From an uncultured Bacilli bacterium (GTDB lineage: Bacteria; Bacillota_I; Bacilli_A; RF39; UBA660): a DNA stretch of 33,449 nucleotides. The notes below the pieces were generated by a model. The model ran no database searches, was not told the origin of the DNA, and worked only from the letters and a program-made list of their open reading frames with translations. Every line of letters begins with the position of its first letter. Position 1 is the first letter of the stretch. The position numbers and the translations under genes were made by a program. Below are positions 17,126-20,100 of this stretch, one piece after another. The stretch covers positions 1 through 33,449 of the forward strand of contig CAKORS010000002.1 in NCBI GenBank assembly GCA_934101605.1, given 5' to 3'.

Positions 17126-20100
17126 ATGAATTCTAATATAAAAAAGAAAATATTAATGCTATCATCATTGACATTAGTCCTATTTGCAGGACTAGTAGCA
17201 GTAGCCTTTGCAATTTATAATTCACAAAAAGAGGGTATATTATCAAGCTTCAAATTTGGAAGTGTTGACACTGTTTTATCAAGCGACAATGATATTAGTA
17301 ATATAAGTTTAAAAGGAAGCACTCCATATAAGGTTAATCTTCTTGTTAAAAATAATTCAACCAGAAAGTTTACACCAACAATAAAATTAGCAGCCTATGA
17401 TAAAACAACAAATGAACAAATAACTGGAGATAGACTAGTATTGATACAAGATATATTGTACGATGATGAAGATTGTTCAACAAAAACTTCATCAAGTATA
17501 CACGTAAATGAAATTATAATAGAAAAAGAAGTTGACAAAGGTAATGTTGCATCAGCATTTAGATGTATGAGAGCAGATAATTCTAAAGCAAAAGAAATAG
17601 GAAATTTTTATCTAAAGGCAAGAGCTACAACGTCATCATATTATGAGTTTACAACCATAGACGCGACTAGCACTGATGAGTTGCAAATATTTCCTGGTGA
17701 TACTGTTAATATATCAGTAGGCAAAATAACATCACCAGACACAACTCAAAATAAAGAAAAGAGACCACTTATAGCAAGAGTAAAGTTAAGTGGATCATAT
17801 AATAACAATAATGACGAGGCAATCATATTAGATTATAGTAAATTTGATATAGATGAAAAATATAATTCAGAAAAAATCTGGATACAAAAAGATGATTCAA
17901 AATGGTACTATGAAGAATCGTCAGGATATTATTACTATAAAGGAGTTTTAACAACAGGCCAAACAACTGAAAGCATTATTAAACAAATAGTTTTCGGCAA
18001 AGGAGCTAAAAGTAATACTCACCAAGATGACACAATAAATATTAATTATAATGTTGAGTTCATAGATTCAGACCCTACAGTAAGGCCAGAAGATTGGCCT
18101 ACCGATGAAACACTGGGCATAACAGATAACCCAGGAGAAATTAAGATGAGTATAACAAATTGTCCTGGAACAATAGAAGTAGGGAAAACAGCACAATTAA
18201 CACTTTCTACTACTCCAGCAAACATAAAGGATAGTGCAACTTGGAATAGTAGTGCTACAGGAATATTATCAGTTGATAAAAATGGTAAGATTACAGGAGT
18301 TGCAACCGGAACAGCAACAATAACAGCAACTGGGACAAATAATCATACAGCAACATGTAATATTAGCGTTGAAAAAGCAAGCGATATAGAAGTGACAGGT
18401 GTTTCAATTTCAACATCAAAAGATAAAATAAAAGTAGGAGAAACACTAAAATTAACAGCGACAATAACACCATCAAATGCAACAAATCAAATGGTAACTT
18501 GGGATAGCAGTGATGAAGAAATTTTAAGAATAGATAATGAAAATAATAAAGAAATATCAGTAGTAGGTTTAAAACCTGGAACAGCAACAATAACAGTAAT
18601 AGCAGGTTCAGGAAAATCAGCTACAAGAGTAATAACAGTAGAACAACAAGAAATTACAGTTGATTCTATTACCCTTAATAAAACAAAACTAGAGTTAACA
18701 AAAGGAAATACAGAAAAGCTGACAGCGCTAGTTTTACCAGAAGGCGCAATAGCAACTAAAACTTGGAGTAGTTCTAATTCAAATGTAGCAACAGTAGATC
18801 AAGATGGTAATGTTACAGCAATAAATGAAGGAACAGCAACAATAATAGTAACAGCAGGCGGAAAACAGGCAAGCTGTATTGTCACAGTAAATCCAATAAT
18901 AAATACAAATAAAGCTGTAAAAATCACAGTAAATCCAACAAGTAAAACCCTTGATATTGGTAAAGGTGAAACAGTAATCATATCATCAAGTGTAACTGGA
19001 GAAGATAGTAGTAAACCTTCAACAGATAAAGTAATATATACAAGTGATAATACAAGTGTAGCAACAGTAGATTCTAACACTGGAAAGGTAGTTCCAAAAA
19101 CTAAGGGAGTAGCAGTAATAACAGCAAAAGCTGGAAATGTTTCTGCTAAAGCAACAATAACAGTAATAAATAGTAAAGAAAATGTGGAAAGTATAAGCCT
19201 AAGCAAAAAAGAATTAAACTTAAAAGTAGGCGAAGCAGAAAAAGTAATTGTAACACTAACTCCAACTGACAGTGAAACAGAAATAATATTTGGTAGTAAT
19301 GATTCTAGTATTGCTAAAGTTGAAAAAAGTGGAAAAGATATAATAATCACTGGAACAGGAGAAGGAATAGCAACAATAACAGTATCTGCTGGAGGAAAAT
19401 ATACAACATTAAAAGTAACTGTAACAAATAGTAATGAAACACCAAGTGCCGATCCAGGAGATAATGGAATAAATAAAAATGGAACAACAAATCCTAAAAC
19501 AGGAGATAAAGTAGTAGCGTATGTAGCGGTGTCGCTATTATCAATACTATTAATAACAACAACAGCAATTTTAATAACAAAAAAAGATGTAATAAATTCA
19601 AAATGTAAAAAAATAATTATAATTTCTATAATAGGATTAAGTATAGCTCTTATAGCTACAATCATATATTTAGCAAGCACATCTTTTGCATATTTTGTAG
19701 AGGATTCTAACGAATTAATATATAATGTAACAGTAGAATATGATGAAACTTTAAAAGGTGATTGGGAATATTATGAATGTGGTAGTGATTCTGATTTATG
19801 TCCAACAGGAACTATTTATATAACTGGCTATAATGGAAGTGAGGTTGATCTTACACTACCTACCGAAATAGATGGTAAAACAGTAACTGGTATAACATCT
19901 CCTAATAAACAGCCAATTCCAGGTATGAACCAAGTTACTTCATTAGTTATACCAGAAGGTTATTTAAGGATAGGTGATTATACATTCAACAGTTATAGTA
20001 AGCTTAATTCTGTATCATTACCAAATAGTTTAGAGTCTATAGGAGAAAGTGCATTTGAGGGAACAGGAATTAATTCTATAACACTACCAACTAGTCTAAA

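Follow-up and report, generated by a model that had tools for sequence, protein, structure and literature searches.

Cell-wall sorting signals are defined as C-terminal features, and annotation pipelines and sortase-substrate predictors alike assume that position. Whether such a signal might operate inside a protein, with a second surface protein following it in the same chain, is the question raised by one open reading frame (ORF) of an uncultured Bacilli bacterium. The ORF encodes 1241 amino acids at positions 17126–20851 of contig CAKORS010000002.1 (assembly GCA_934101605.1), whose forward strand from position 1 to 33,449 is the stretch of DNA analysed here (hereafter the window). The host is a low-GC (~25%), spore-forming, walled and uncultured member of the gut Bacilli. 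A first-pass annotation, made from the letters alone, had proposed that the ORF encodes a self-splitting surface polyprotein. We confirm the observation and find the proposal partly supported: known kinds of component, namely a sortase substrate, a BsaA/TasA-like system and a BspA-type leucine-rich repeat (LRR) adhesin, are combined through what look like genuine signals joined in frame. In the most far-reaching reading, to which we assign a probability of roughly 0.2, a sortase would act as a polyprotein splitter: it would yield a wall-linked, BsaA-tipped stalk and a hairpin-tethered LRR protein, the latter would be released by a SipW-type peptidase and re-attached by donor-strand complementation, and fibre base and adhesin would self-assemble at 1:1. 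A pair of separate genes at a second locus, A'' and B'', would represent the same device split over two genes.

Architecture of the open reading frame

The ORF comprises the following features, in which TM denotes a transmembrane helix and A'', B'' and g3 are paralogues encoded at the second locus (L021).

17126–20851, forward strand: whole ORF, 1241 aa; BsaA-like domain, five Big_2 domains, sorting signal, second signal peptide and LRR module
17126–17212, forward strand: N-terminal signal peptide of the SipW-cognate type (MNSNIKKK...VAVAFA↓IYNSQ), from hydropathy, with a predicted cleavage site
17213–18145, forward strand: BsaA/TasA/camelysin-like domain, residues 30–340, from matches to A'' and g3; TIGR04090 score below cutoff
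18146–19429, forward strand: five Big_2 Ig-like domains forming the stalk (PF02368 in five stretches, 174.6 bits; cutoff 22.8)
19430–19489, forward strand: low-complexity linker SNETPSADPGDNGINKNGTT, read from the sequence
19490–19504, forward strand: sortase motif NPKTG, residues 789–793; predicted cut T792↓G793, with Asp at P2'
19511–19579, forward strand: TM1 VVAYVAVSLLSILLITTTAILIT, residues 796–818; halts transfer within the sorting signal and is the counterpart of the helix that opens B''
19580–19612, forward strand: basic cytoplasmic loop KKDVINSKCKK, residues 819–829, charges +5/-1
19613–19675, forward strand: TM2 IIIISIIGLSIALIATIIYLA, residues 830–850; h-region of a putative second, internal signal peptide of the SipW type
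19676–19714, forward strand: junction STSFAYFVEDSNE, residues 851–863 (STSFA↓YFVEDSNE); putative signal-peptidase site, beginning a TapA/TasA-like N-terminal strand
19691–20848, forward strand: BspA-type LRR module, the mature B part (PF13306 LRR_5 in two stretches, 120.6 bits; cutoff 27.7; 47% identical to B'', also P0390/P0122)
20852–20876, forward strand: terminator-like AT-rich hairpin followed by a T-run, directly after the stop codon, from RNA folding

Residues 1–29 have the composition of a Sec signal, with a basic n-region, a hydrophobic core (Kyte–Doolittle maximum 2.49) and the ending AFA↓IY, and this pattern recurs in the L021 paralogues A'', g2, g3, g4 and g5. By the same hydropathy scale the ORF holds exactly three segments of TM grade, the N-terminal signal, TM1 and TM2, and both these segments and the coordinates agree with the order that had first been described for the region (NPKTG at residues 789–793, a helix, a Lys-rich loop and a second helix). 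An AlphaFold2 (AF2) model of residues 781–1241 (mean pLDDT 67) draws TM1 and TM2 as two long helices, with a helix at residues 790–818 that covers TM1. Segment 851–877 is of low confidence in this model and is not packed against the LRR fold, which is compatible with a free N-terminal strand. The hairpin behind the stop codon was missed by a consensus terminator scan, having too few G-C pairs.

A predicted internal sorting signal built on the motif of the organism

Another predicted sortase substrate of the organism is encoded in the window and served as an internal control:

5865–7109, forward strand: separate 414-aa surface protein with the canonical C-terminal signal ...TTSNPKTG-VATSIILAGTVVIAVTVGTTIVL-KRKYMKNI (stop)

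This protein is secreted, matches no Pfam family and ends in ...GDTGTTSNPKTGVATSIILAGTVVIAVTVGTTIVLKRKYMKNI (stop). Its motif, at 6999–7013, is the same pentapeptide as the internal one of the ORF and shares with it the TT(S) prefix and the codons. A canonical NPKTG signal at the end of this product indicates that NPKTG is the organism's own sorting motif. In Bacillus anthracis, NPKTG is the site of the class-B sortase SrtB, an enzyme that also requires Asp at P2' (PMC11987632); the internal site reads NPKTGD, so the P2' Asp is present. The description of the region as a complete sorting signal is thus borne out in that it uses the organism's motif and has the P2' residue of the B. anthracis SrtB site. 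Given the composition of the protein itself, an exact NPKTG lying at most six residues ahead of any of three TM helices would be expected ~3e-5 times.

The ORF carries the pentapeptide (residues 789–793), and the motif is directly followed by a TM helix (796–818) and a positive segment (KKDVINSKCKK, +5/-1). These parts, together with the P2' Asp, are shared with the substrates of class-B sortases (NPKTG/NPQTN, e.g., B. anthracis IsdC). The position is where the ORF departs from them, since 448 residues follow the internal motif, compared with 31 in the canonical protein at 5865–7109, and the basic tail leads on to another TM helix and then to a folded domain of 386 residues. The doubled-motif LPXTG anchor NF033073, which has two motifs at the extreme C-terminus, is a further point of comparison: it matches weakly over the NPKTG–TM region (12 bits against a cutoff of 48), and the ORF product is not a member of that family.

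One open frame across the junction

We give roughly even odds to the explanation as a whole: that ORF 17126–20851 is a real, translated, single reading frame, a covalent version of a conserved A–B gene pair, processed along the pathway proposed below. The frame stays open for 448 codons after G793, while ~13% of codons in the other two frames are stops, which excludes chance and indicates that the downstream half has been maintained as coding sequence. The earlier figure of about 412 further codons holds when one counts from where the Lys-rich loop ends; counted from G793, the number is 448. Within 19490–19760 the only canonical in-frame start is a GTG at 19529, placed 25 nt beyond GGAG(A) and thus with no usable Shine–Dalgarno (SD) sequence, in keeping with the original statement that the region lacks a usable internal start. 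An internal promoter was considered and rejected: promoter-like sites numbered 25 against 23.5 expected, not above chance.

A one-residue variant of the ORF product (P0001) is encoded on a 114-kb contig (L001) from a separate Hadza gut metagenome. This contig differs from the window by one base across 23.7 kb, and such near-identity in a second assembly excludes a one-off assembly error. With a single nucleotide polymorphism in 23.7 kb, the fusion is documented in essentially one clone. The sole difference, at 20622, is a non-synonymous A/T exchange (Q1166L) in the LRR part of the ORF.

The first-pass annotation had offered a lost stop codon or an assembly artefact joining two adjacent genes as the dull alternative. 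Both fare poorly, because the ORF is intact in the second assembly and B'' begins at TM1. The window gene is without a helix, tail and stop codon belonging to the sorting signal itself, and without a spacer and a start codon, so it does not amount to two ordinary genes minus a stop. A 1-nt insertion or deletion in an A-run that joined two normal genes was likewise rejected, since an A8 run leaves the downstream frame closed by a TAA and without a start. The 3.7-kb ORF has only two A7 runs, at 19579–19585 and 19607–19613, both touching the 33-nt loop region. A shift of ±1 in the first of them would lead to an ordinary C-terminal sorting signal (...KKRCNKFKM or ...KKM, each followed by a stop) with the LRR half switched off. 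The A7 pair could be a means of phase variation or simply what chance produces in AT-rich codons for Lys; at 25% GC, an A7 run and early stops in the shifted frames are both to be expected by chance.

The paralogous gene pair at locus L021

The C-terminal half has its closest relative in a stand-alone protein of 418 aa (P0122/P0390; 47% identity). P0390 lies on another contig of the Hadza sample that yielded L001, namely L021 (NODE_10 of ERZ4560186), which has a coverage of 23.4x against 23.1x for NODE_214. The shared sample and coverage identify P0390 as a paralogue within one genome. Its gene belongs to an operon:

L021, 4786–11257: prepilin-type (GFxxxE) gene, four BsaA/TasA-like proteins (three small ones and one of 797 aa), A'' and B''

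The signal peptides of the four proteins preceding A'' end in ...SIA↓YFTS, ...TYA↓YLTS, ...AYS↓YFTA and ...ISYA↓LNDS, and most of the four match the BsaA family (TIGR04090, up to 54.8 bits) or camelysin (PF12389; Peptidase_M73). In the 797-aa protein, a BsaA-like part is fused directly to an LRR domain. The combination of pilin-like and BsaA-like genes in L021 recalls the PilA3-dependent bsa system of C. perfringens.

A'' (185 aa, signal ending ...SSS↓YFTSQ) immediately precedes the separate gene B'' (418 aa), and the two correspond to the two ends of the window ORF. In BLAST comparisons, window residues 1–166 match A'' residues 5–177 at 32% identity (E 4e-16), and window residues 829–1240 match B'' at 47% identity (E 3e-107). 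A short segment in between, residues 257–276 (WYYEESSGYYYY), matches g3. B'' has a strong SD sequence (GGAGGA) and an ATG, which place its start at MVYVIVSIILLLVFIFLVLSYI, collinear with TM1 of the window ORF. Its first helix is followed by a loop (NDWIKDKK), a second helix and KSYA↓LFSVETNEIEYNVTV. The junction motif is thus common to the window ORF, B'' (KSYA↓LFSVETNE) and the proteins of the L021 operon. In both paralogues TM1 is a clean hydrophobic helix of 21–22 residues despite ~50% divergence, which suggests that the helix is in use.

The two halves of the ORF are the members of a conserved A–B gene pair of a BsaA/TasA-like fibre system. As judged from these alignments, the window gene consists of A, another BsaA-like stretch, the five Big_2 domains and the NPKTG motif, followed in frame by the N-terminal hairpin of B. 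The LRR module natively begins with TM1 and the basic loop, which do not form a free-standing sorting tail; this context had been missed when the region was first annotated. A and B are neighbours in the same order at the two loci, and this favours a functional link of long standing. Moreover, a tract of 70 nt (window 20717–20786, L021 11123–11192) is identical within paralogues that are ~47% identical as proteins, which points to recent, ongoing gene conversion between the LRR genes and hence to both copies being live.

Three contigs from other samples touch the same region. In a human-gut sample whose scaffold has N gaps (L002), an A''/B''-type pair at 2246–4160 lies directly upstream of FTHFS, and from 20822 on the sequence is that of the window, the crossover lying at ATTAATTGG, a shared string of 9 nt. 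We had taken L002 for the orthologous locus of a sister strain and have withdrawn that assignment, as B'' is a paralogue of the same genome and the switch falls at the 9-nt string; we regard L002 as a recombinant allele or else a chimera of the scaffolding and draw no evidence from it. Two more samples contributed contigs (L015, 1–120; L016, 3–95) with an identical FTHFS and the last 30–39 residues of the ORF, likewise identical, and both break inside the gene, which fits fragmentation of assemblies at this locus by repeats or paralogues.

Signal peptides and family membership

The junction after TM2 had been likened to SipW-class signal peptides. This stands in that TM2 and SFA↓YF match the signals of six BsaA/TasA-like paralogues of the same genome. 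The internal junction gave no match to the SipW-cognate profile TIGR04088, and no neighbouring sipW gene was found. As far as sequence comparison goes, the resemblance to SipW-type signals lies in the ...A↓(Y/L)F motif and in the BLAST match of window residues 828–871 (TM2 and junction) to the signal peptide of the BsaA-like g3 (E 0.003). Against the TapA profile (TIGR04087) the junction scored 13.3 bits (cutoff 80, E 0.046), which is not significant alone, and g3 itself scored 14.5 bits against TIGR04088, for which the cutoff is 19.

The N-terminal domain scored 22 bits against TIGR04090 (cutoff 60, E 1e-4), while the L021 paralogues scored 54.8, 27.7 and 20.3 bits against the same profile and A'' matched PF12389 with an E value of 1.5e-3. 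A PDB sequence search gave no match, and the single-sequence AF2 model of the domain (pLDDT 36.8) was unusable for the fold.

Proposed pathway

The following order of events, including the cleavages by a sortase and a SipW-type peptidase, is what we infer from the features above. The N-terminal signal would send the A domain and its stalk out through the Sec system. TM1 would halt transfer, leaving the Lys-rich loop (+5/-1) in the cytoplasm, and TM2 would re-start export and carry the LRR module out. The predicted TM1–loop–TM2 hairpin obeys the positive-inside rule, as had been argued on first inspection. A sortase of the class-B type would then cut between T792 and G793, linking residues 30–792 to peptidoglycan.

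The fragment left behind, GDKVVAYVAVS..., would be approximately the same molecule as stand-alone B'' (MVYVIVS...), so the fused and split loci would give equivalent end products. This predicted equivalence is, in our view, the strongest internal argument that the arrangement could work. A SipW-like peptidase would probably then cut at SFA↓YF and free the LRR module, a step proposed because the sequence after TM2 shares its motif with the putative cleavage sites of the BsaA-like paralogues.

Finally, the N-terminal strand of the released module (YFVEDSNELIYNVTV) may dock on a BsaA-like subunit by donor-strand complementation, which is a guess by analogy with two systems. TapA donates its N-terminus to TasA in this manner (PMC10151520). 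BsaA uses donor-strand exchange, and a srtB gene adjoins the bsa operon (bioRxiv 2024.11.04.621531).

Points against the sortase-splitting reading

Several observations weigh against this pathway. Neither a sortase nor a sipW gene was found within ~57 kb (the window and 10-kb extensions on each side), and sipW was absent from every locus read, L021 included. The same arrangement was not seen among 389 relatives nor in large homologue searches. The fused form is known from a single near-clonal lineage, which as it stands leaves long-term selection for the fusion unproven. For the N-terminal domain and the internal signal peptide alike, the family assigned stems from profile matches below threshold and should be read as tentative. 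There is also a difficulty of logic: if TM2 is a cleaved signal peptide, the retention of TM1 in B'' and in the window protein is unexplained.

The homologue searches were run with the whole protein and with its parts. The whole-protein search was dominated by Big_2 proteins, the cluster of the query itself alone being informative, and a whole-protein scan of genome-collection contigs gave no match. Nothing scored in the search with the N-terminal domain. An alignment of the C-terminal half against metagenome contigs returned a single distant LRR locus, and the best 150 matches of its exhaustive profile search were giant LRR repeat proteins; both results were uninformative. In a scan with the neighbouring FTHFS, the nearest species representative was 66% identical (labelled 'uncultured Bacilli', also Hadza) and was non-syntenic, with an aminopeptidase upstream.

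Alternative explanations

The alternative that survives best is a recent recombination accident in one clone, at a variable locus for surface proteins, in which a deletion or gene conversion joined a gene for A, stalk and NPKTG to the hairpin of B, giving a product that may be made but is unselected, and whose processing is incidental or defective. We regard this as a real possibility, though one that falls well short of probable. It would account for a fusion limited to one near-clonal lineage and for the lack of a second example in homologue searches. The paralogues evidently recombine, as seen in the 70-nt tract and, at L002, in a B''-like gene beside FTHFS with its crossover at ATTAATTGG, and contigs of other samples break within the gene. 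An accident would, however, have had to join the halves exactly in frame and with the textbook spacing of NPKTG, two residues, a TM helix and a basic segment, and to leave the 448 downstream codons intact. The halves are moreover old paralogues of A'' and B'' (32% and 47% identity) that are adjacent in the same order at both loci. Even a fusion of accidental origin would still be processed if a sortase is present.

A second alternative retains the fusion and dispenses with cleavage. The product would be a membrane protein with two ectodomains, in which NPKTG goes unused, for want of a cognate sortase or of access to the site, and the TM1–TM2 hairpin anchors it in the membrane with stalk and LRR module alike exposed on the outer side. 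The hairpin topology suits this explanation by the positive-inside rule, no sortase gene occurs in the ~57 kb read, and stand-alone B'' has the hairpin without any sortase motif. We nevertheless think it improbable: the canonical NPKTG signal on the protein at 5865–7109 implies a cognate sortase, the chance expectation for NPKTG beside a TM helix is ~3e-5, and behind TM2 the sequence agrees with the signal peptides of BsaA-like paralogues.

The least likely explanation, which we hold to be quite doubtful, is that two products arise in some other way, whether from a fault in sequencing or assembly, from initiation at GTG 19529 inside the ORF, or from slippage along the A7 run (19579–19585) as a form of phase variation. 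Slippage has some appeal, in that the heptamer A AAA AAA comes directly after TM1, the only two A7 runs of the ORF fall in the loop, and a shift in either direction runs into a stop behind a short basic tail (A8 or -1, ...ILITKKRCNKFKM and a stop; A6 or +1, ...KKM and a stop), giving an ordinary C-terminally anchored protein with the LRR half off; but A-runs of this kind number 50 across the window, an off-frame stop inside nine codons is expected in 72% of cases, so that the tails are not significant, the A8 form has a TAA just upstream that closes the downstream frame and no start, and so is not a broken two-gene arrangement, the GTG has no SD sequence, and the sequence is unchanged in an independent assembly.

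Comparison with known systems and significance

The likeness to BsaA/TasA/camelysin fibre systems, which have SipW-type signal peptides and the accessory protein TapA, consists of the family matches of the N-terminal domain and of the L021 operon and of signals ending in ...A↓YF(T/S). The differences are that the profile matches of the window and L021 proteins lie below the curated cutoffs and that an extra TM helix precedes the internal signal peptide. BsaA fibres are reported to be membrane-anchored and without LPXTG, whereas the BsaA-like domain of the window protein bears a stalk and a sortase motif. TapA resembles the LRR module in having no TasA fold, a SipW-type signal and a short N-terminal strand (PMC10151520).

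The C-terminal module is a clear PF13306 member and in this respect like other BspA-type LRR_5 adhesins; the N-terminal two-helix hairpin with a SipW-type junction was found, among 120 relatives, in the window protein and its paralogue only.

Surface polyproteins offer a parallel in outcome, since there too a single precursor gives two surface proteins. The SlpA precursor of C. difficile is cut by Cwp84, and Atl of S. aureus is also split after export. In such cases the split is made by dedicated proteases or by autoprocessing at a soluble linker. The cut proposed here differs in being the sortase transpeptidation itself, combined with a signal for membrane re-insertion. Literature searches for internal sorting signals and for sortase polyproteins found no described case.

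If the proposal is true, sortase cleavage would release a second useful protein in place of a discarded membrane peptide, and the arrangement would be a new Gram-positive route to two surface proteins at fixed stoichiometry. It would also tie sortase anchoring to the otherwise sortase-independent TasA/BsaA fibres, whose attachment to the cell is an open question. The sequence GTTNPKT↓GDKV provides a directly testable substrate from a gut commensal lineage without a cultured representative.

Neighbouring genes

Two further genes of the window may be mentioned:

11659–12372, forward strand: 237-aa protein with one N-terminal TM anchor (~38–57), a Big_2 domain and no sorting signal
22566–23720, forward strand: rhomboid intramembrane protease, 384 aa, two genes downstream of the ORF

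The rhomboid could in principle clear the leftover TM hairpin. Its gene appears to belong to a conserved backbone made up of FTHFS, rhomboid and trigger factor.

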